Of a stretch of 64,000 nt of DNA, positions 1,275-62,282 are shown in pieces (position 1 is the stretch's first letter; each line of letters starts with the position of its first letter). Location: assembly GCA_042570405.1 (NCBI GenBank), contig JBHPGR010000003.1:679-64678 (forward strand), read 5' to 3'. This DNA comes from Candidatus Omnitrophota bacterium. GTDB taxonomy: Bacteria > Omnitrophota > Gorgyraeia > Gygaellales > Profunditerraquicolaceae. Under the pieces are notes generated by a model. The model did not search any database and was not told the DNA's origin. It was given only the letters and a program-made list of their open reading frames with translations. A program made the position numbers and the translations under genes.

Positions 1275-1490
1275 TTACATGGGGTTGCTGGATGTCTTGG
1301 TTACGTTAGTTGCCTGCTCACCCTTAGGCCCTTGCGTAACTTCAAACTCTACTTCCACGCCCTCTTCCAGAGTCTTGTAACCATCCCCCTGGATCGCGCT
1401 GTAATGCACAAAGATATCTTTGCCATCATCAGAAGTAACGAAGCCGTAACCTTTCTGATTACTGAACCACTTTACCTTACCTTTTGCCAT
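1275..1490 (-). CDS. csp: cold-shock protein, CspA family
   Basis: [27 protein letters not shown]: RNP1/RNP2 cold-shock domain motifs. Confidence 0.95.
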
Positions 1491-1513
1491 TTGCTACTTT
1501 TCACCCCCTTTAG

Positions 1514-1557
1514 ATAAAAAAACCGCAAAGCAAATCATTTCTTTTGCCTTTGCGGTT
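1514..1557 (-). terminator. terminator-like hairpin plus U-run inside the csp 5' leader (candidate attenuator)
   Basis: Minus strand reads AACCGCAAAG..CTTTGCGGTT followed by TTTTTTTAT. It ends 24 nt before the csp ATG. Confidence 0.5.
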
Positions 1558-1605
1558 CCCAGTATTCTTGTTTTCGCGTTCATTGATTTACCTAAATTCT
1601 TAATC

Positions 1606-1896: not shown

Positions 1897-3153
1897 ATGG
1901 TCAAATTCAAAGAAGTACTTAAAAACAGGAATTTTTCACTGATCTGGTTCGGCCAGATCCTCTCGCAGTGGGGGGACCGCCTGGGTCAGATCGCCCTGAT
2001 CGCCTTTGTCTATGAACGCTCACCGGGTTCGGCGATGCAGATGGCCAAGATCCTCTCCTTTACGATCATCCCGGTATTTCTGATCGGTCCGCTGGCAGGC
2101 GTATATGTCGATAGATGGGACAGGCGCTGGACGATGGTCGTCTCTGACCTCCTGCGTGCAATTCTGGTGGTGGCGATCCCGTTGCTTTTGATAGGCAGGG
2201 GGTCAAATATACCTTTGTATGTTATCATATTCCTGGTCTTCTGCATCGGAAGGTTCTTTGTCACCGCGAAACTTGCGATCATCCCGGACCTGGTAGCCCG
2301 GAAGAAGGATCTTTTATTAGCTAATTCCCTGGTTAATGTTACCGGCATGATCGCTGCGGTGATCGGCTTCGGGCTGGGCGGGTTATTAGTAGAATGGTGG
2401 AAGGCCGAAGGCGGATTTTACCTGGATGCGCTCACCTTTTTGATCTCGGCGGTATTGATATTTTTGATCAGGCCAAAGAGGATAAGATTTATGCATCCCA
2501 GGAATCTTGCGATAGAGGGGACAAGGCTGGTAAGCGAGATCAGTAAGTCTGTGATCGAGGAGATAAAGGAGGGGGTGCTTTACCTTTTCAGGCTTAAAAA
2601 GATGCGCTTCACCACCGGCATCCTTTTTCTTCTCTGGTCGGCGCTGGGCTCGATCTATGTCGTCTTTATTATCTTTGTGCAGAACAGCCTTCAGTCAGCA
2701 ACAAAGGACCTGGGGCTCTTGATCATGTTTTTAGCTTTCGGGCTCTTCTTCGGCGCCCTGCTTTACGGAAGGTTCGGCCAGAAGATCCCTTATCAAAAGG
2801 CGATCTTTGCCTGCCTTTCCTTATCAGGTATTGTTTTGGTAGCTTTTACCATTCTCGTAGACAGGTTCCAGAGTTTTTCCCTGGCAGCAGTCTTGGCGAT
2901 GTTGCTTGGAATGGCGGTCTCGCCGATCATGAATATCGCAAATACCCTAGTCCATGAGGCAAGCATTGATCATATGCGCGGCAAAGTCTTTAGCTCGCTG
3001 GAGATAGTAATCCACTTGGCTTTCCTGATCTTTATGTTTATCAGCAGTTATATTGCGGAGCGAGTGGATGCGATGTGGGTGATGATCAGCGTGGGTACAT
3101 TTTTGGCGTTTTTCGGATTGCTTAATCTGTTTAAGAAGCGACAGCCGGCATGA
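1897..3153 (+). CDS. MFS transporter
   Basis: 418 aa, about 12 TM, with an N-terminal NFSLIWFGQ..S.WGDR motif typical of MFS_3/EntS-like transporters. Confidence 0.8.
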   Translation: MVKFKEVLKNRNFSLIWFGQILSQWGDRLGQIALIAFVYERSPGSAMQMAKILSFTIIPVFLIGPLAGVYVDRWDRRWTMVVSDLLRAILVVAIPLLLIGRGSNIPLYVIIFLVFCIGRFFVTAKLAIIPDLVARKKDLLLANSLVNVTGMIAAVIGFGLGGLLVEWWKAEGGFYLDALTFLISAVLIFLIRPKRIRFMHPRNLAIEGTRLVSEISKSVIEEIKEGVLYLFRLKKMRFTTGILFLLWSALGSIYVVFIIFVQNSLQSATKDLGLLIMFLAFGLFFGALLYGRFGQKIPYQKAIFACLSLSGIVLVAFTILVDRFQSFSLAAVLAMLLGMAVSPIMNIANTLVHEASIDHMRGKVFSSLEIVIHLAFLIFMFISSYIAERVDAMWVMISVGTFLAFFGLLNLFKKRQPA

Positions 3154-4520
3154 TCAAGTTAAAGGAGCATAAACATCTTACAGGAGGCCTGCCCATAGAG
3201 AGATTTGCGCCTCCAAAGATCGCTTACATCCCTTTAAGCCAGCACCTGGGAAAGGCCTGCATACCGCAAGTCAGGGTCGGCGACCAAGTATCCCCGGGGC
3301 AGAAGATCGCATCTTGCCAGGCCCATGTCTTTGCTCCGATCCATGCCTCGATATCCGGAAAGGTCACGGGCTTAAGGGATTATCCGCATCCTCTGCTGGG
3401 CCGTTGTAAGGCAATAGTCATCGATGGTGATGGAGAGGACAGGCAGGCCACAGACCATCCCTCGGCTTCGCTTCCCTCGTTTAGCTCGGGACTTCGCGGG
3501 ACAAGCAGAGCGCAGACCGAGATAGATAAGTTAAGCCCCGAAGATATCCGTGGTATCGTAGGTGATGCCGGGATCGTAGGGATGGGGGGAGCGGGATTTC
3601 CTACGCATATAAAACTCAAGCCGCCTAAGCCGGTAGATTCCCTGATCATTAACGGTGCGGAGTGCGAACCGTATCTGACTGCCGATTACTGCCTGATGCT
3701 TGAGAAAACCAGCGAAATCATCTCAGCTGTCGGTCTGATAGTAAGATGTTTAGGCGTAAAACAGGTGTATATCGCGATCGAGGATAACAAGCCCGAGGCG
3801 ATCAAGGCCTTCCAAAGCAAGATACAAGATATCCCTCTGCTTGGTTCGACTTCGCTCACCACAAGTCGCTCGGGAGAGGCGGGATACGAAATACGGATAT
3901 TAAAATCCATGTATCCCCAGGGTGGAGAGAGACAATTAATAAAGAATATCTTAGGCAGAGAGGTCCCTTCCGGAAAGCTCCCTTTTGACGTCGGCGTAGT
4001 GGTGCATAATGTAGCCACGATCTTCGCAGTTTATGAGGCGGTTTATCTTAATAAACCCCTGTACGAGCGGGTTGTGACTGTCACCGGCAGCTGCCTGTCA
4101 ACTCATAAGAATATCCTGGCGCGAATAGGTACTCCGATAAAAGAGTTGATCGGGCATTGCGGCCCCCTGAAGGATCAGCCGGCCAAAATTGTGGTCGGTG
4201 GGCCGATGATGGGCATAGCGCAATGCACGGATGCGGTGCCGGTGATAAAGACTACAAGCGGTATTATTCTGTTAAACAAAAGAGAGGCCGCGCTAAACGA
4301 AGAAGAGGCCTGTATCCGCTGCGGCGCCTGTATCAGAGAGTGTCCGGCGGGCCTGATGCCGTGTCTTTTGAATTTAGCTTGCGAGAAAGAGCTTTGGGCA
4401 CAGACAAAAGACGATTCAGTTTTAGATTGCATTGAATGCGGGGTATGTAATTATGTCTGCCCGGCAAACAGGAATCTAGTCCAGTCAATAAAGAGAGCGA
4501 AGCTGGAGGCGGTAAGATGA
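3150..4520 (+). CDS. rnfC: Rnf electron-transport complex subunit C
   Basis: GIVGMGGAGFPTHIKL, INGAECEPYLTAD, and two C-terminal CxxCxxCxxxCP ferredoxin motifs. Confidence 0.9.
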   Translation: MIKLKEHKHLTGGLPIERFAPPKIAYIPLSQHLGKACIPQVRVGDQVSPGQKIASCQAHVFAPIHASISGKVTGLRDYPHPLLGRCKAIVIDGDGEDRQATDHPSASLPSFSSGLRGTSRAQTEIDKLSPEDIRGIVGDAGIVGMGGAGFPTHIKLKPPKPVDSLIINGAECEPYLTADYCLMLEKTSEIISAVGLIVRCLGVKQVYIAIEDNKPEAIKAFQSKIQDIPLLGSTSLTTSRSGEAGYEIRILKSMYPQGGERQLIKNILGREVPSGKLPFDVGVVVHNVATIFAVYEAVYLNKPLYERVVTVTGSCLSTHKNILARIGTPIKELIGHCGPLKDQPAKIVVGGPMMGIAQCTDAVPVIKTTSGIILLNKREAALNEEEACIRCGACIRECPAGLMPCLLNLACEKELWAQTKDDSVLDCIECGVCNYVCPANRNLVQSIKRAKLEAVR

Positions 4521-12890: not shown

Positions 12891-12964
12891 CGCGGGGTAG
12901 AGCAGTCTGGTAGCTCGTTAGGCTCATAACCTAAAGGTCAGAGGTTCAAATCCTCTCCCCGCAA
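12891..12964 (+). tRNA. initiator tRNA-fMet (anticodon CAU), no encoded CCA
   Basis: Near-identical in pattern to the E. coli initiator: CGCGGGG..CCCCGCAA with a C1xA72 mismatch, loop CTCATAA, T-loop TTCAAAT. Confidence 0.9.
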
Positions 12965-13130
12965 TAAATATCCGCCAGTTCTCCCGCAAAGCTATTATTT
13001 AGCTGGCGGGATCCCGCCTGATAATTAACTGAGGTGCGGGAAAATCTGCCCCCCGCAACCACTTATAAAAGCCCCAAGGCAATTGAGGGCAGTCCCGAGG
13101 AGCGAAAGTGACGAGGGGCAACCACTTAAA

Positions 13131-13156: not shown

Positions 13157-13245
13157 ATACGTTCGCGGCCAGAACTTTATGGCAAAGATGAAAAATTGAG
13201 CCGCTCAGTATCAATTTCTTCAAGCTAAAATGCGGAGAAATTTAT

Positions 13246-13273
13246 TTGCCAAGACTTGAATTTCTGCTATAAT
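13246..13273 (+). promoter_or_regulatory. sigma70-type promoter for purB
   Basis: TTGCCA, 16 nt spacer, TATAAT. AAGGAG RBS lies before ATG 13306. Confidence 0.65.
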
Positions 13274-13305
13274 AGGGCTTCCGCGAAATATGGCAAGGAG
13301 CTCTC

Positions 13306-20097: not shown

Positions 20098-20317
20098 ATG
20101 AATCTGTCGGTTTTCTCGCTCGGGGTCGGTTTTTTAACGCCAATGATCTTTCGCATTTCGGTGGCTGCTGAACTCGCACTTCGCGCCTCTTGCGCTCCGT
20201 GCTCAAACAGCATCGCCATCCCAAGATTGCCCCGTCGTAGGCGGGGCCTTGGGATTCCCTCAATGCTCAAGCTCCATTGGCTAAAACCGACACTCGCTCG
20301 AAAACTGCCAGATCCAT
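20098..20317 (+). repeat. family A foldback element, copy A1
   Basis: Termini ATGAATCTGTCGGTTTTCTCGCTC .. CGCTCGAAAACTGCCAGATCCAT are inverted repeats. The ends are homologous to copies at 26578-26801 and 36091-36298. Confidence 0.85.
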
Positions 20318-20330
20318 TTTTATTTATGTT

Positions 20331-21809: not shown

Positions 21810-21955
21810 AAATTCTAAATCCTAAATTCGAAATTCTAAACAAATCTGAAATCCCAAACTCTAAACTTAAAACTAAATGTTTAGAATTTATGATTTAGCG
21901 CTTAGAATTTGTTTAGTATTTAGATATTAGAATTTAGTATTTAAGCTTAAGAGGG
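21810..21955. repeat. AT-rich imperfect palindrome built from TTCTAAA/TTTAGAA units
   Basis: About 145 bp of low-GC spacer. The left half is rich in (A)TTCTAAA and the right half in TTTAGAA(T). Centre is near 21885. Confidence 0.5.
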
Positions 21956-26569: not shown

Positions 26570-26577
26570 GCAAATAA

Positions 26578-26801
26578 ATGAATCCGGCGTTCTTCGAGCG
26601 AATGTCGATTTTAGCCAAAGCATGCTTGAGCAATCGAGGGCATCCGAACGCGGAAGCATTCGGATGACGAGCATGTTTGAGCCCGTCCTGGCGAAGCCGA
26701 CGGGCGAGTTGCGCAGGAGCCGAGATTGCGAAAGACCTTTGGCGCCCGCCACGATTCATGGCGGGAAAATCGACCCTGAGCGAGAAGAATGACGGATTTA
26801 T
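26578..26801 (-). repeat. family A foldback element, copy A2 (inverted relative to A1/A3)
   Basis: The reverse complement aligns with 36091-36298 over most of its length. Termini ATGAATCCGGCG.. / ..GACGGATTTAT. Confidence 0.85.
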
Positions 26802-32141: not shown

Positions 32142-32417
32142 ATGGCTATGGAGATAAGAATAGCAAAATTAAGCCAGGATGAAATCAAGAAAAGAGGTAT
32201 CACTGACTGGCCGATCTGGGAGAAGGAGGTATCGCGCTTTGACTGGCAGTATGATTCAATCGAAGAGTGCTATCTCTTGGAGGGCGAGGTCAGCGTAGAG
32301 ACTAAAGACGGCAAGAAGGTTACTTTTGGTCAGGGTGATTTTGTCATCTTTCCTAAAGGCCTGTCTTGCGTCTGGGATATAAAGAAGCCAGTGAGGAAAC
32401 ACTATAACTTTAAGTGA
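32142..32417 (+). CDS. small cupin (cupin_3/DUF861-like)
   Basis: 91 aa. W..W......F.W.Y...E.CY.LEGEV.V....G pattern. Confidence 0.7.
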   Translation: MAMEIRIAKLSQDEIKKRGITDWPIWEKEVSRFDWQYDSIEECYLLEGEVSVETKDGKKVTFGQGDFVIFPKGLSCVWDIKKPVRKHYNFK

Positions 32418-32482
32418 GGCCACAACTTAGCGAACGCGAGAGAAGCTAAGTTGTTTGGCCGAACTACCCCGCCTTGGCGGGG

Positions 32483-32538
32483 TTAATTCGCACCTATAAC
32501 TTACTCACGTTCACGCGCTCGTAAGTTATGTGCTCATT
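32483..32538 (+). repeat. family C motif, copy C1 (AATTCGCA box + ATAACTTAC/GTAAGTTAT hairpin + GTGCTCATT)
   Basis: Read directly. Ends 3 nt before ATG 32542. Confidence 0.8.
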
Positions 32539-32541
32539 AAA

Positions 32542-32958
32542 ATGAAAACCTACACTGAACACCTCTGGTTTAATACCAAGAAACGCTATGAGTTTATAAA
32601 TATCACCCCGCAGGTCGTAGATCTGATTAAAAAGAGCGGAGTAAGCGAGGGTTTGTGCCTCGTCAATACCATGCACATCACTGCCAGCGTCTTTATCAAT
32701 GATGATGAGGATGGCCTGCACCAGGATTTTTCTGCCTGGTTGGAGAAGCTGGCGCCTTTTGGGATCGACAAGTATAAACACAACCTCACCGGCGAAGATA
32801 ACGCTGACGCGCATCTTAAGCGGACGATCATGGGCAGGGAAGTGGTGGTAGCGATTACCAGGGGGAAGCTTGACTTCGGGCCCTGGGAGCAGATCTTTTA
32901 CGGTGAATTCGACGGTAAGCGCAGAAAGCGGGTTTTGGTTAAGATTATCGGAGAGTAG
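32542..32958 (+). CDS. YjbQ/UPF0047 family protein (secondary thiamine-phosphate synthase family)
   Basis: INITP.V......SGV.EGLC.V...HITASVFIN and DNADAHLK motifs. ATG 32542 is preferred over GTG 32530. Confidence 0.85.
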
Positions 32959-35884: not shown

Positions 35885-35885
35885 T

Positions 35886-35964
35886 TAATGAGCAGATAAC
35901 TTACGGAGCGAAGCGAAGTAAGTTATAGCCTGCGCCTCTTAGTTATTTATGCGTCTGCGAATTA
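35886..35964 (-). repeat. family C motif, copy C2 (minus orientation, ends 2 nt before the helicase ATG)
   Basis: Minus strand reads ..GATTAATTCGCA..TATAACTTAC-13nt-GTAAGTTATCTGCTCATTAA-ATG. Confidence 0.8.
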
Positions 35965-36090
35965 ATCCCGGCGAATGTGGCAAAATTATCAAAGAGAATT
36001 TTGCCACTGCTTATGAGCCGGGAAAGTTCGGGTTTATTACTCATTATAATCTAAATTATTGATTTATCCAACAAAAAGAGTAGAATAGAG

Positions 36091-36298
36091 ATGAATCTAG
36101 CGGTTTTCTCGCTCAAGTCGGTTTTTTAACGCCAAAGTTCTTGCGCTCGCTCGGCTCCTGCGCAACTCGCCCGTCGGGCTTCGCCCAGGACGGGCTCAAA
36201 CATGCTCGTCGTCCGAATACTTCCGTATTCGGATTCCCTCGCTTGCTCAAGCATGCTTTGGCTAAAACCTCCATTCGCTCGAAAACCGCCAGATTCAT
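36091..36298 (+). repeat. family A foldback element, copy A3
   Basis: ATGAATCTAGCGGTTTTCTCGCTC .. CGCTCGAAAACCGCCAGATTCAT. Confidence 0.85.
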
Positions 36299-36321
36299 CT
36301 TTGAAATGGGGCATAAGGCAT

Positions 36322-47472: not shown

Positions 47473-47501
47473 TTGACAGTGGGCTAAATATATTGCATAC
47501 T
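47473..47501 (+). promoter_or_regulatory. candidate promoter for the riboswitch-led transcript
   Basis: TTGACA, 17 nt spacer, CATACT. Confidence 0.45.
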
Positions 47502-47509
47502 TCTAATAG

Positions 47510-47612
47510 AGAGTAAGGGTTTACCGAGAAGGGCAAACCCTGGGAAATCAGGGGACGCAAAGCTACGGGTCTAAAGGTGGGTTTTCCTTTGTGATTGCCG
47601 GGCTGCCGAAGA
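47510..47612 (+). promoter_or_regulatory. c-di-GMP-I (GEMM-I) riboswitch aptamer
   Basis: GGGCAAACCCUGGGAAAUCAGGGGACGCAAAGCUACGGGUCUAA..CCGGGCUGCCGA matches the remembered GEMM-I core (GGCAAACC, GAAA tetraloop hairpin, GACGCAAAGC, GG.CUAA, closing CCGG..CCGA). Confidence 0.8.
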
Positions 47613-52789: not shown

Positions 52790-52828
52790 CTTACTCACAC
52801 TTACGTGTTCGTAAGTTATGTGCTCATT
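52771..52828 (+). repeat. family C motif, copy C3 (overlaps the lolD 3' end, upstream of ilvE)
   Basis: TAATCAATTCGCA..TAGCTTACTCAC..TCGTAAGTTATGTGCTCATT. The last 20 nt are identical to C1. Confidence 0.8.
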
Positions 52829-52845: not shown

Positions 52846-53715
52846 ATGAAGGTCTATATCAATGGAAAGTTTTACCAGAAGAAGGATGCAAAGATCTCGG
52901 TCTTTGACCATGGCCTTTTATACGGAGACGGAGCTTTCGAAGGGATCCGCTCCTACAACCGGCTGGTCTTTAAATTAAAGGAGCATATCGACAGGCTCTT
53001 TGAGACCGCACACACCCTGATCCTCGATATTCCTCTAAGTAAGAACGAACTGATCAAAGCGGTGATCAAGACCCTTAAAGTAAATAAGCTAAAAGATGCC
53101 TACATCCGCCTGGTGGTGACAAGGGGAGAAGGTGATCTTGGTCTTGATCCGCGCAAATGCAAGGGGCATGCGAGCGTTATCATCATTGCCGATAAGATCG
53201 CTCTTTATCCGGCGCAGCTTTACAGGAAGGGCCTTGAGATTATCACCGTGCCTACGGTGAGGAATCTGCCTGAGGCGCTGAACCCGCAGCTGAAGTCCTT
53301 AAATTATCTTAACAATATCCTGGCAAAGATCGAAGCGATAAACGCCGGCTTTGATGAAGCGATCATGCTCGATACTTTAGGCTATGTAGCGGAGTGCACG
53401 GGAGACAATATCTTTATCGTCAGAAAGGACCACATCTACACTCCTCCTCAGTGCATGGGCACCTTACGTGGCATCACCCGCGATGCGGTCCTTGATATCG
53501 CAAGAAAGATGAAGAATCCCGTGCATGAGCACGTGATCACCCGTCATGAGGTCTACATCTCGGATGAGTGTTTTCTCACCGGTACGGCAGCAGAGATCAT
53601 CCCGGTGGTCAAGGTCGACGGACGCCTGATCGGCTCCGGCAAGCCGGGGAAGCTTACCCTAAGCCTGATGAAGAAGTTTAAGGAATTGACTAAGAAAGAC
53701 GGGATAAAGTATTAA
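52846..53715 (+). CDS. ilvE: branched-chain amino acid aminotransferase (class IV)
   Basis: HGLLYGDG.FEGIR.Y, YIRLVVTRG and LNYLNN..AK motifs. Confidence 0.85.
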   Translation: MKVYINGKFYQKKDAKISVFDHGLLYGDGAFEGIRSYNRLVFKLKEHIDRLFETAHTLILDIPLSKNELIKAVIKTLKVNKLKDAYIRLVVTRGEGDLGLDPRKCKGHASVIIIADKIALYPAQLYRKGLEIITVPTVRNLPEALNPQLKSLNYLNNILAKIEAINAGFDEAIMLDTLGYVAECTGDNIFIVRKDHIYTPPQCMGTLRGITRDAVLDIARKMKNPVHEHVITRHEVYISDECFLTGTAAEIIPVVKVDGRLIGSGKPGKLTLSLMKKFKELTKKDGIKY

Positions 53716-59924: not shown

Positions 59925-61297
59925 GGGCAAAGACCGTATTCAGCTGTCAGAACTGCGGGTATCAATCTCCTAAATGGCTGGGTAGGTGTCCGGATTGCAG
60001 CAACTGGAATTCCTTTGTCGAAGAGGATTATGCGGTTCCGGCTAAGAAGCAGAAGGAGCGCGTCAGTCTCTTTAAGGAGGAGCCGGTTTTGCTGCGGGAT
60101 GTCAATATAAGAGAGGCCTCGCGCCTTAATACCGGGATCTCGGAGCTGGACAGGGTCTTAGGAAATGGCCTGGTGGTGGGTTCAGTGACACTGCTGGGAG
60201 GTGATCCCGGCATCGGAAAATCCACGATCTCCCTGCAGCTTTCAAATCAACTCGCCGCAGGCGGCAGGACGATACTCTATGTAAGCGGCGAGGAGTCGGT
60301 GACGCAGACCAAGCTGCGGGCAAAGCGTTTAGGCGACGGGAAAGCTGAGAAGGGCAAGCTTTATATAGTCAATCAGACGGATCTGGCCCTGATCATTGAG
60401 TATGTAAAAAAGATCAGGCCGGACGTGATGATCATTGATTCCATCCAGGTGGTCTTTGAGCCTACGATCAGCTCATCCCCGGGTAGCGTCAGCCAGGTTA
60501 GGGAGTGTGCAGGGATCCTGGCCCAGTTAGCAAAGACTTCCGGCACAAGCGTTGTGATCATCGGCCACGTGACTAAAGCAGGCAATATTGCCGGCCCCAG
60601 GGTCCTGGAGCATATCGTTGATACCGTGCTTTACTTCGAGGGTGACAGGTTTTCAGTCTACCGGATCTTGAGGGCGGTAAAGAACAGGTTTGGATCGACT
60701 AATGAGATCGGCGTCTTTGAGATGTCGGCTGCGGGCCTTGCGCAGGTAAGTAATCCTTCGGAGATCTTCCTATCGGAGAGGCCAAAGGATGTCTCAGGTT
60801 CGGCAGTGGCATCGGTCCTGGAGGGCTCCCGGCCGCTCTTGGTTGAGATCCAGGCGTTGGTGAGCAAGTCCGCTTTCGGCTATGCGCGCAGGAGGACCCA
60901 GGGGTTTGATTATAATCGCACCAGCCTGTTGATCGCAGTCTTAGAGAAGAGGATCGGCTTGCATCTTGAGGCAGAGGATGTCTTTATAAATGTAGCCGGC
61001 GGGATCAAGGTAGAGGATCCGGCGGCAGATCTTGCGGTAGCATTGTCTATAGCTTCAGGGTTCCGTGACAAACCGATCCTTGCCGATTGCGTGATCTTGG
61101 GTGAGGTCGGCCTTACCGGCGAGATCAGAAGTATCTCCCAGATAGACCTGCGCATAAATGAGGCAGAAAAGCTGGGTTTTAAGAGCTGTATTCTACCAAA
61201 GCATAATCATAAGTCTTTATCCCATTCGAGGCAATCCATAGAGCTGATCCCTGTTTCGACCTTAAGGGAAGCAATGGATATTGCTTTAAGGAGGTAG
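59921..61297 (+). CDS. radA: DNA repair protein RadA/Sms
   Basis: C.NCGY...KW.GRCP.C zinc finger, [14 protein letters not shown], and a Lon-like C-terminal domain. Confidence 0.95.
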
Positions 61298-61301
61298 TTT
61301 T

Positions 61302-62282
61302 ATGAATTTATTATTTGTACGTATTCTTTTGATCATTGCAGGTATGCTGGTGGGTTATCAAACGGCAGTGCCAAGGGGCGCCGGGGTCATGGGGCTTGCG
61401 ATCGGCCTGATTGCTGCGGTTGCGATCATTGCCATGGAGATCGGAATGGGGAGGATCTCTGTAAGAGGCTTATCAAGTACGGTCTTCGGTATGATCCTGG
61501 GCTTGATCATGGCAAAGCTTGTCACCGATGCCTTCAGTTTAGCGCCGATAGACCCGGAGAGCCTATCGATCATCAGGGTCACGCTCACGCTTATCTTCTG
61601 TTATCTGGGCATGATCATCGGGCTGCGCGGCAAGGATGAGTTCAGCCTGATCATCCCTTATGTAAAGCTGCGCCGCCAGGACGGCGCTGAGGAAGCGATA
61701 TTATTGGATACCAGCGTGATCATCGACGGAAGGATCATAGATATCTTCAAGACGCACTTTTTGTACGGAAAGATCATCATCCCGCGTTTTGTACTTAAGG
61801 AGCTGCAGCAGATCGCAGATTCCTCTGACCCGGTAAAACGCCAAAGGGGCAGAAGAGGCCTTGAGATCCTGCATACGGTCCAGAAGCAGTCAGGCCTGGA
61901 TATCAATATACATGATGAAGATTTTCCGGGGATCCGCGATGTTGATTCAAAGCTGGTGAAGCTCGCCCAACTTTTGGATGCGAAGATCCTCACCGTTGAT
62001 TTTAATCTTAACCGCGTTGCCGGGATCCAGGGTATAAAGGTGCTTAATATCAATGAGCTGGCAAATACTTTAAAGCCGGTCGTCTTTCCGGGTGAGAAGA
62101 TGAAGTTGAAGTTGATCAAGGAGGGCAAGGAGCACAACCAGGGTATAGGCTACCTTGAGGACGGGACGATGGTAGTGGTGGAAGATGCCCGGAAGCTCAT
62201 CGGCCGCGAAGTAAGGGTAGCGGTCACCTCAGTCCTGCAGACACAGGCGGGAAGGATGATCTTTACAAAGCTTGAGAAATGA
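61302..62282 (+). CDS. membrane-anchored PIN + TRAM domain protein (YacL-like)
   Basis: N-terminal TMs, [15 protein letters not shown] motif, and a C-terminal TRAM-like ..VVVEDA...G..V.V.VT.VLQT.AGRMIF. Confidence 0.8.

Follow-up and report, generated by a model that had tools for sequence, protein, structure and literature searches.

Three copies of a motif end at start codons

A 64,000-nucleotide stretch of Candidatus Omnitrophota DNA (referred to as the window) contains three copies of one motif, C1, C2, and C3, each of which ends next to a start codon. This arrangement raises the question of whether the motif regulates the genes that follow it or belongs to a repeat of another kind. The sequence-only reading of the window had favored a cis-regulatory role over a random REP sequence. 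Inspection of the sequences showed that it had placed the copies correctly, 3 nt before the ATG of yjbQ (C1), 2 nt before that of a helicase gene (C2), and 17 nt before that of ilvE (C3). It was also right in describing the last 20 nt of C1 and C3 as identical, the yjbQ and helicase genes as devoid of a preceding Shine-Dalgarno (SD) sequence, and C3 as overlapping the last codons of lolD. The gene names are supported by Pfam (UPF0047/YjbQ, DEAD plus DSHCT helicase, ABC ATPase, and class IV aminotransferase), including those of the clpC operon (UVR for the McsA-like protein, ATP:guanido phosphotransferase for the McsB-like protein, and ClpC).

The window has exactly three instances of the 18-nt block GTAAGTTATNTGCTCATT, all exact, at 32521-32538 and 52811-52828 on the plus strand and at 35887-35904 on the minus strand. 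Chance would give 0.13 matches even at a tolerance of up to three mismatches, and the observed number was reached in 0 of 100 shuffles. The paired arms ATAACTTAC...GTAAGTTAT are present in C1 and C2 only (0 expected), and the 9-mer of the arms has no occurrence outside C1, C2, and C3 in the 64 kb. A covariance model built for the family (R1) retrieved all three copies and found a fourth, diverged copy in inverted orientation (Table 1).

TABLE 1 Coordinates of motif copies and associated features (window positions unless a locus number, L, is given)
Feature	Position	Strand	Evidence	Remark
C1, A arm (start-codon side)	32483-32540	+	R1, 77.4 bits, E=4e-18	yjbQ ATG at 32542
C2, A arm, GCAG/CUGC subfamily	35885-35965	-	R1, 33.3 bits	helicase ATG (35884-35882) directly after
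C3, solitary A arm, UCAAU/AUUGA outer helix	52774-52830	+	R1, 76.3 bits	
Fourth, diverged inverted copy, B arm (stop-codon side)	32408-32470	-	R1, 37.4 bits, E=3.5e-7	
H0 of C1 cassette, between B and A arms	32467-32482	+	seen in sequence	CCCCGCC-UU-GGCGGGG
H0-type hairpin of C2	35967-36022	-	RNA fold	CCCGGC...GUGGCAAAAUU-loop-AAUUUUGCCAC...GCCGGG
B-arm remnant preceding the H0-type hairpin of C2	36030-36023	-		CGAACUUU
Sigma-70-like promoter upstream of H0 and A arm of C2	36043-36070	-	promoter scan, 10/12 matches	TGGATA-16-TATAAT
Second repeat family, three copies	20098-20321, 26576-26744, 36089-36300			
Other spacer hairpins	L129 3871-4022; L130 3871-4014; L131 3871-3976; L071 5597-5671; L112 4186-4267			
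tRNA-start duplications	L083 5328-5596; L098 5374-5640; L101 1140-1320; L060 ~1486-1600			

The motif forms one long interrupted hairpin

Each copy folds into an imperfect hairpin of approximately 58 to 80 nt that is bulged on its 5' side and interrupted by two tandem U-C/U-C mismatches, both invariant. From the base, the hairpin consists of an outer helix (UUAAU/AUUAA), the first tandem U-C/U-C mismatch, a GCAC/GUGC helix, and the 2- to 3-nt 5' bulge, above which follow the helix AUAACUUAC/GUAAGUUAU, the second tandem U-C/U-C mismatch, and a variable tip. C1 thus reads UUAAU-UC-GCAC-(bulge CU)-AUAACUUAC-...-GUAAGUUAU-GUGC-UC-AUUAA. The motif had been described as separate boxes and arms; pairing in fact extends to its outer boxes, TTAATTCGCAC and GTGCTCATTAA, giving a single long hairpin. 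The tighter hairpin that had been assigned to C3 is an alternative fold only, the family structure at this site being ATAGCTTAC/GTAAGTTAT plus ACAC/GTGT. The 5' half of C3 encodes the last four codons and the TAG stop of lolD, and an SD sequence and the ilvE ATG at 52846 come after the element. In C2, about 25 nt are inserted at the bulge, which can hold a whole extra hairpin. Across the family, loop and bulge, and with them the spacing between arms and boxes, vary from 10 to >80 nt, which rules out a fixed promoter or dimer-operator spacing.

The same fold was recovered independently by RNAalifold from 42 related sequences. The seed alignment has 94.9% of its cells paired, and the observed values were reached in 0 of 500 shuffles. 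In an alignment of 150 hits, fitted to model R1 and including some reverse-strand reads, 93.7% of the cells are paired, and double changes occur in 19 of the 22 pairs (424 cells). As RNA, C1 has a minimum free energy (MFE) of -15.5 kcal/mol (z=-4.4) and C3 one of -22.1 kcal/mol (z=-5.9).

The stems are almost purely Watson-Crick, and nearly all changes convert one Watson-Crick pair into another. G-U and A-C pairs are about equally frequent (18 versus 14 in A arms and 8 versus 9 in B arms), showing no G-U bias. This speaks against selection on one RNA strand, which would be expected to favor G-U, and a structured cis-regulatory RNA with strand-specific G-U tolerance was rejected on these counts, which are similar in both arm types. 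At the same time, full pairing is never restored at either of the tandem mismatches or at the one-sided bulge, which implies that a folded single strand is read strand-specifically by something.

The family is specific to Omnitrophota

A scan of species-representative genomes with the 18-mer gave at least 118 loci. The complete hairpin is present in about 90 of the listed matches, which come from at least 57 assemblies labeled Candidatus Omnitrophota or Omnitrophica (a few of the approximately 57 carriers bear the automatic label "Planctomycetia" or "bacterium"). Outside this phylum, the matches have no left arm and are attributed to chance. Model R1 gave 197 hits in 87 Omnitrophota loci. The carriers are far apart, with EF-G proteins 67 to 77% identical and L3 proteins 49 to 63% identical, and the core of about 40 nt is almost invariant among them.

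Rfam 15 contains no match at the gathering score, with only chance-level matches at E values up to 10. The repeat was not found in the literature searched, and the main paper on Omnitrophota genomics makes no mention of repeats. Carriage by phages was considered and rejected, as none of the seven 18-mer matches in IMG/VR fits model R1. The family is therefore undescribed so far and specific to Omnitrophota.

The hairpins are arms of a cassette that spans stop codon to start codon

The full unit reads, along the mRNA, stop codon, arm B (the reversed motif), a hairpin with a GC clamp (H0), arm A, and ATG with or without an SD sequence. It is 130 to 270 nt long, contains no ORF, and spans exactly the distance from the stop codon of one gene to the start codon of the next. 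The stop codon, which is usually the UAA that begins UAAGUGAG..., has a fixed position within B arms. The inverted ends of the cassette are ATGAGC/GTGAG...GCTCAT. Approximately 30 R1 hits or inverted pairs in the 87 Omnitrophota loci flank an H0 hairpin, and H0 itself occurs in a handful of sequence families that are common to several genomes. Solitary A arms, hybrid B/A hairpins, and tandem arrays, such as the array of B units in L014, are deletion or duplication derivatives of the cassette.

In the window, the cassette of C1 (32411-32540) is formed by three hairpins that abut without a linker (-53 kcal/mol, z=-5.5). Its B arm, which reads UAAGUGAGGCC-ACAACUUAG...CUAAGUUGU-UU-GGCCGAACUA on the mRNA strand, folds with an MFE of -24.2 kcal/mol (z=-5.3), shows compensatory changes in P1b and P2 in the R1 alignment, and contains the TGA stop (32415-32417) of the upstream cupin gene (ORF 32142-32417). 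The H0 module of C1 is found in the same position in L015, L055, L057, and L066, and that of C2 also precedes A arms in L002, L019, and L099.

The mismatches of arm B read G-A/G-A on the mRNA. As RNA, this form exceeds the U-C form of arm A in stability by 3.8 kcal/mol (-22.0 versus -18.2 kcal/mol), so that the stop-side hairpin is the strong one on the mRNA. The start-side arm presents its weak A-U/U-C base next to the AUG.

The orientation toward start codons that three copies had suggested is strong in the family as a whole. Among 137 distinct elements, the 3' end of the motif abuts a start codon on the same strand in 73, the opposite (G-A) form does so in only 4, and in approximately 30 to 51 the 3' end adjoins, in antisense, the stop codon of the gene upstream. 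Orientation and position are thus not random in this family-wide count, and much of the start-ward rule follows from the two ends of the unit both facing outward. Start offsets are bimodal. By a stricter count of start-associated elements (n=69), 36 lie at -1 to +4 nt without an SD sequence and 33 at +7 to +19 nt, 31 of these with an SD core. With very few exceptions, start sides carry the A type and stop sides the B type, which is not expected of a symmetrical transposon that inserts at random unless selection follows. Some copies lie upstream of sigma-70-like promoters or after convergent genes, and tRNA genes are also among the genes flanked.

At several tRNA genes, mostly of tRNA-Arg, the first 16 to 18 nt of the gene are duplicated on the far side of an upstream A arm plus H0 (Table 1). 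The junction of the duplication falls where the D-arm of the tRNA (GAGCAC) matches the GAGCAC of the element, and L083 has two tandem copies of the 104-nt unit.

All three window copies are insertions

Comparison with syntenic orthologues showed that C1, C2, and C3 are all insertions. In L126, L127, and L128, which encode YjbQ proteins 82 to 87% identical and share the yjbQ-macro/NUDIX neighborhood, the spacer upstream of yjbQ is 0 to 15 nt and lacks the element. The lolD/ilvE spacer of L129 to L131 consists of 9 to 12 nt, that is, the stop codon and an SD sequence, within a fully syntenic region (a tRNA synthetase gene, lolE, lolD, ilvE, mcsA, mcsB, and clpC). LolD has 224 to 226 amino acids in these loci versus 230 in the window, where the element encodes its last residues. 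Loci L126 to L131 (51.9 kb) gave no R1 match at E values up to 1.

The helicase gene has the promoter TTAGAT/TTGGAT-17-TATAAT in three genomes (the window, L128, and L014). In L128 (helicase 67% identical), this same promoter (13236-13293) has its TATAAT 6 nt before the ATG, which suggests that the mRNA is of a leaderless type. In L014 (helicase 72% identical), a full cassette follows immediately after the TATAAT of the promoter, which lies at approximately 3130-3160, and at the same site the window has H0, arm A, and a B-arm remnant downstream of the promoter-like site at 36070-36043. In both genomes the cassette is thus inserted between the -10 box and the ATG, and C2, lying downstream of a sigma-70-like promoter, is in the 5' untranslated region. 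The copy in L014 is orthologous to C2 and belongs to the same subfamily; this helicase copy, retained ever since the lineages of the window and L014 diverged, shows a compensatory change in its outer helix.

Turnover is also seen at other orthologous sites. The junctions of the str/S10 cluster (rpsL-rpsG-fusA-tuf-rpsJ-rplC) are occupied differently in L071, L112, L092, L089, and L108. L071 has cassettes at rpsG/fusA, fusA/tuf, and rpsJ/rplC, two of its cassettes being nearly identical over about 190 nt with their variable parts included, while L112 has only a solitary A arm at tuf/rpsJ. At fusA/tuf, the empty site of L112, ...AAATAAGGAGGTG..., differs from the filled site of L071, ...CTTTAA[GTGAGGAC...CTGCTCATT]TAAGGAGGTG..., by the cassette plus a repeated TAA. 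L089 holds deletion derivatives, one a mini element and the other a hybrid hairpin that joins the 5' half of B to the 3' half of A.

A further empty site is found in the window itself (61286-61301 or, more narrowly, 61295-61301), within a region (61250-61340) whose flanks are 95 to 96% identical to the single amplified genome (SAG) AM-311-A19 (L068). At this point L068 (919-1182) has about 260 extra nt with the ends ATGAGC...GCTCAT, composed of two tandem H0 plus A units; the stop/SD region is present on either side of it as an 11-nt direct repeat (TGAGGAAGTAG / TAAGGAGGTAG). SAG assemblies can be chimeric, and an inversion of L068 with respect to the window may be such a case, but the insert itself is made up of genuine elements. 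Orthologous sites thus show presence/absence polymorphism for C1 to C3 against L126 to L131, for the str/S10 junctions, and for the window against L068. Target-site duplications vary, with TAA or TA fitting fusA/tuf and tuf/rpsJ, 11 nt at L068, and none clear at C3.

None of the inverted pairs surrounds an ORF, and the 574 neighboring ORFs (about 0.6 Mb sampled) include no recurrent transposase-like family. Neither a transposase, nor a RAYT gene, nor an autonomous parent element was found in 690 kb, which is a small sample, and tblastn with IS200 and IS608 TnpA sequences (approximate queries) returned only chance matches in these 690 kb.

The genes downstream form no regulon

The 64 downstream proteins match 115 Pfam families, none of them more than twice, and include L3, S10, S7, EF-G, EF-Tu, GroEL, DnaJ, GlmS, triosephosphate isomerase (TIM), and CODH subunits. 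There is no functional coherence among these genes and no regulon.

The proposal that the motif is a DNA operator or promoter module of a regulon including the clpC stress operon, serving as a CtsR/HrcA-like substitute, had drawn on the palindromic sequence and on ilvE-mcsA-mcsB-clpC as one of the downstream units; some other copies precede groEL and dnaJ. It is largely refuted and now has next to no probability. The spacing of arms and boxes (10 to >80 nt) and the incoherence of the downstream proteins speak against a repressor operator, and the compensatory changes indicate pairing rather than recognition of half-sites. The genes that follow are unrelated (ribosomal proteins, tRNAs, glmS, tpiA, CODH, and others). 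A promoter module fails on the same variable spacing and on promoter scans that report no site at C1 or C3. The idea of a switch for yjbQ, the helicase gene, or clpC fails on the syntenic orthologues of yjbQ, the helicase gene, and ilvE-mcsA-mcsB-clpC that do without the element. C1, C2, and C3 are thus not specific regulators of these genes. What stands of the cis-regulatory proposal is that the motif is nonrandom, hairpin forming, and oriented toward starts; the contrast that it drew with REP sequences does not hold, as a REP/MITE-like repeat with nonrandom placement is favored.

Several narrower readings were also rejected. Promoter readings as TTCGCA/TATAAC, CTTACT/TAAGTT, sigma-54, or ECF GAACTT have wrong or variable spacings, with the scanner blank at C1 and C3. 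An intrinsic terminator does not agree with arm A ending in AUUAAA, and the scanner reported none at C1, C2, or C3; H0 with the UUAAUU after it makes a weak terminator candidate at best. A mini-ORF, ATGTGCTCATTAA, is absent in the CTGC subfamily. A K-turn or ribozyme is disfavored by the distance of 4 bp between the bulge and the tandem G-A steps and by the lack of a hammerhead core. An uptake-signal sequence is not compatible with a 9-mer that never occurs outside hairpins, nor long-range pairing of A with B with the different, internally compensated helices of the two arms of one cassette. The resemblance to a dif/Xer arm extends to only 8 of 11 positions, by eye, and the loose pattern TTCG...CTCA was uninformative (58 matches versus 73 expected). 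Arm A as a substitute for the SD sequence was dismissed as well, because an SD core precedes only about 36 to 63% of the genes in these genomes anyway: within 18 nt of the start, it is found in 30 to 37 of the 59 long ORFs of the window and in 129 to 168 of 354 in 52 Omnitrophota loci. Many neighboring genes in the window and these 52 loci overlap by 4 nt.

Other palindromic and structured features

Unrelated to these elements is a second repeat family, about 210 nt long and bounded by 37-nt inverted termini, of which the window holds three copies, one of them inverted and one located just upstream of the promoter of C2 (Table 1). Stop-to-start spacers are also filled by other long hairpins, whose arms are degenerate 6- to 8-nt repeats (GTGTAAT, CAAATGA, GTATCA, CTGTTA, and similar). 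The ilvE/mcsA junction holds three unrelated sequences in L129 to L131 and only 14 nt in the window. Local palindromes lie at 21810-21942 and 12979-13044 of the window, one with 64-nt arms, 70% complementarity, and AAATTCTAAAT-like repeats and the other a 36-nt palindrome just after the tRNA gene at 12891-12964. A c-di-GMP-I-GGC riboswitch (47523-47611; 69 bits versus a gathering score of 59) follows just after a TTGACA-17-TACTT-type promoter (47473-47502).

Relation to known repeats and intercistronic hairpins

REP sequences, BIMEs, and REPINs, which are associated with RAYT transposases, occur in enterobacteria and Pseudomonas as units of 20 to 40 nt, a BIME being a mosaic of the form Y-linker-Z. 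The Omnitrophota repeat resembles them as a short extragenic imperfect palindrome in many copies, with two slightly different types inverted around a linker. It also shares the location between codirectional genes, the cotranscription, the tandem clusters, and the long-term vertical persistence. It differs in having about 60 nt per arm, in a consensus (GgnTnAATTCGCAC..ATAACTTAC) without the GT(A/G)G (GTAG) head, and in that no RAYT gene was found in the 690 kb covered. Furthermore, its core is conserved across class-level divergence whereas REP sequences are species specific, and its ends, unlike those of REP, are anchored exactly at stop and start codons.

ERIC (IRU) and the Correia elements of Neisseria (NEMIS) are MITE-like and transcribed, ERIC being conserved across a broad host range. 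Common features are palindromic units of about 100 to 150 nt with inverted ends, placement next to or into gene ends, hairpins on the mRNA, and copy numbers that differ widely between related genomes. The Omnitrophota repeat is set apart by its three-hairpin architecture with a separate central module in several sequence families, its invariant tandem mismatches, and the lack of a consistent TA duplication. The cassettes are small (<300 bp) and noncoding and have terminal inverted repeats, as MITEs do, whereas an autonomous parent insertion sequence with the same ends was not found in the approximately 0.6 Mb sampled.

Phage T7 has intercistronic RNase III hairpins, and T4 gene 38 has a ribosome-binding site bridged by a hairpin. 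These are comparable as long interrupted hairpins between cistrons or just before an initiation codon, in what would be a functional analogy only.

Mobile repeat or mRNA punctuation

Taken with the turnover described above, the motif is probably the start-proximal arm of a noncoding palindromic repeat family, similar to MITEs or to REP-BIME (REPIN) elements, that has spread through Candidatus Omnitrophota. The elements would be carried passively on mRNAs as hairpins. The weaker A-U base of arm A, with its U-C mismatches beside the start codon, may explain why this orientation is tolerated before genes, while arm B would form stable tandem G-A pairs on the mRNA. Propagation or maintenance could depend on a putative conserved factor that reads the folded single strand through its invariant mismatches and bulge.

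Conservation of the core and of the helicase copy nevertheless exceeds what is expected of a decaying selfish repeat. A role as RNA that serves the host is the main rival because of this deep conservation and because the copy before the helicase gene was retained with a compensatory change in its outer helix. According to this alternative, which is unlikely as matters stand, the hairpins are selected on the mRNA for a general role in punctuation or translation, in addition to mobility or instead of it, with mobility secondary. Possible tasks are the marking of processing sites, the protection of transcript ends, and the organization of translation starts directly at the 3' base of arm A. The mechanisms proposed are coupling, hopping from the stop codon, which lies at the 5' base of the set of hairpins, and a cleavage that regenerates an mRNA of the leaderless type.

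Several observations fit such a role. The core is deeply conserved across distant carriers, the copy before the helicase gene is kept as an orthologue in the window and L014, and the cassette extends exactly from stop to start with three hairpins abutting without a linker. In other genomes, unrelated hairpins take up this stop-to-start position at the very same junctions, namely, tuf/rpsJ in L071, rpsG/fusA in L112, and ilvE/mcsA in L129 to L131. The leaderless-type arrangement of the helicase gene (L128) has become a structured leader of about 150 nt without an SD sequence, kept in two lineages, and the start-side arm is the less stable one. Against these stand the absence of strand-specific G-U tolerance, the patchy presence even within the S10 operon, and the close relatives and syntenic orthologues that manage without the element. 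Starts without an SD sequence are common anyway, and some of the copies are found ahead of a promoter or behind convergent genes.

A specific form of this alternative, speculative and given little probability, is that the cassette has been domesticated as a phylum-wide gene-boundary device. A conserved Omnitrophota factor would recognize the twin tandem mismatches, and the three adjoining hairpins would either place the upstream stop codon beside the downstream start codon or guide cleavage to the 3' base of arm A. If so, genes without an SD sequence, such as those of ribosomal proteins and the formerly leaderless helicase gene, would be translated from the hairpin-adjacent AUG.

It is very unlikely that the hairpin is a folded single-strand recombination site, attC-like or a target of Xer or HUH enzymes, that marks the boundaries of gene cassettes. 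As in attC sites of integrons, an imperfect hairpin lies between codirectional, promoterless ORFs, and the Watson-Crick-only stems, conserved mismatches, one-sided bulge, and variable tip are reminiscent of attC with its unpaired spacer, its extrahelical bases, and its variable terminal structure. The Omnitrophota hairpin has no R/L core-site consensus, however: its base is UUAAU/AUUAA, without the RYYYAAC/GTTRRRY core sites. The genes flanked are core genes in conserved operon order (tuf, rpsJ, rplC, and fusA), the copies form inverted pairs rather than a one-way array, and no integrase recurs among the neighbors.

The reading as a mobile palindromic repeat removes a tempting but wrong regulatory annotation from the clpC, yjbQ, and helicase genes. 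The family marks DNA of Omnitrophota and accounts for many of the long "intergenic" spacers in otherwise compact genomes. With its conserved core, invariant mismatches, and anchoring at stop and start codons, it offers a good system in which to study how selfish hairpins are tolerated in essential operons and to ask whether mRNA processing or SD-independent translation has come to make use of them in an uncultured phylum.
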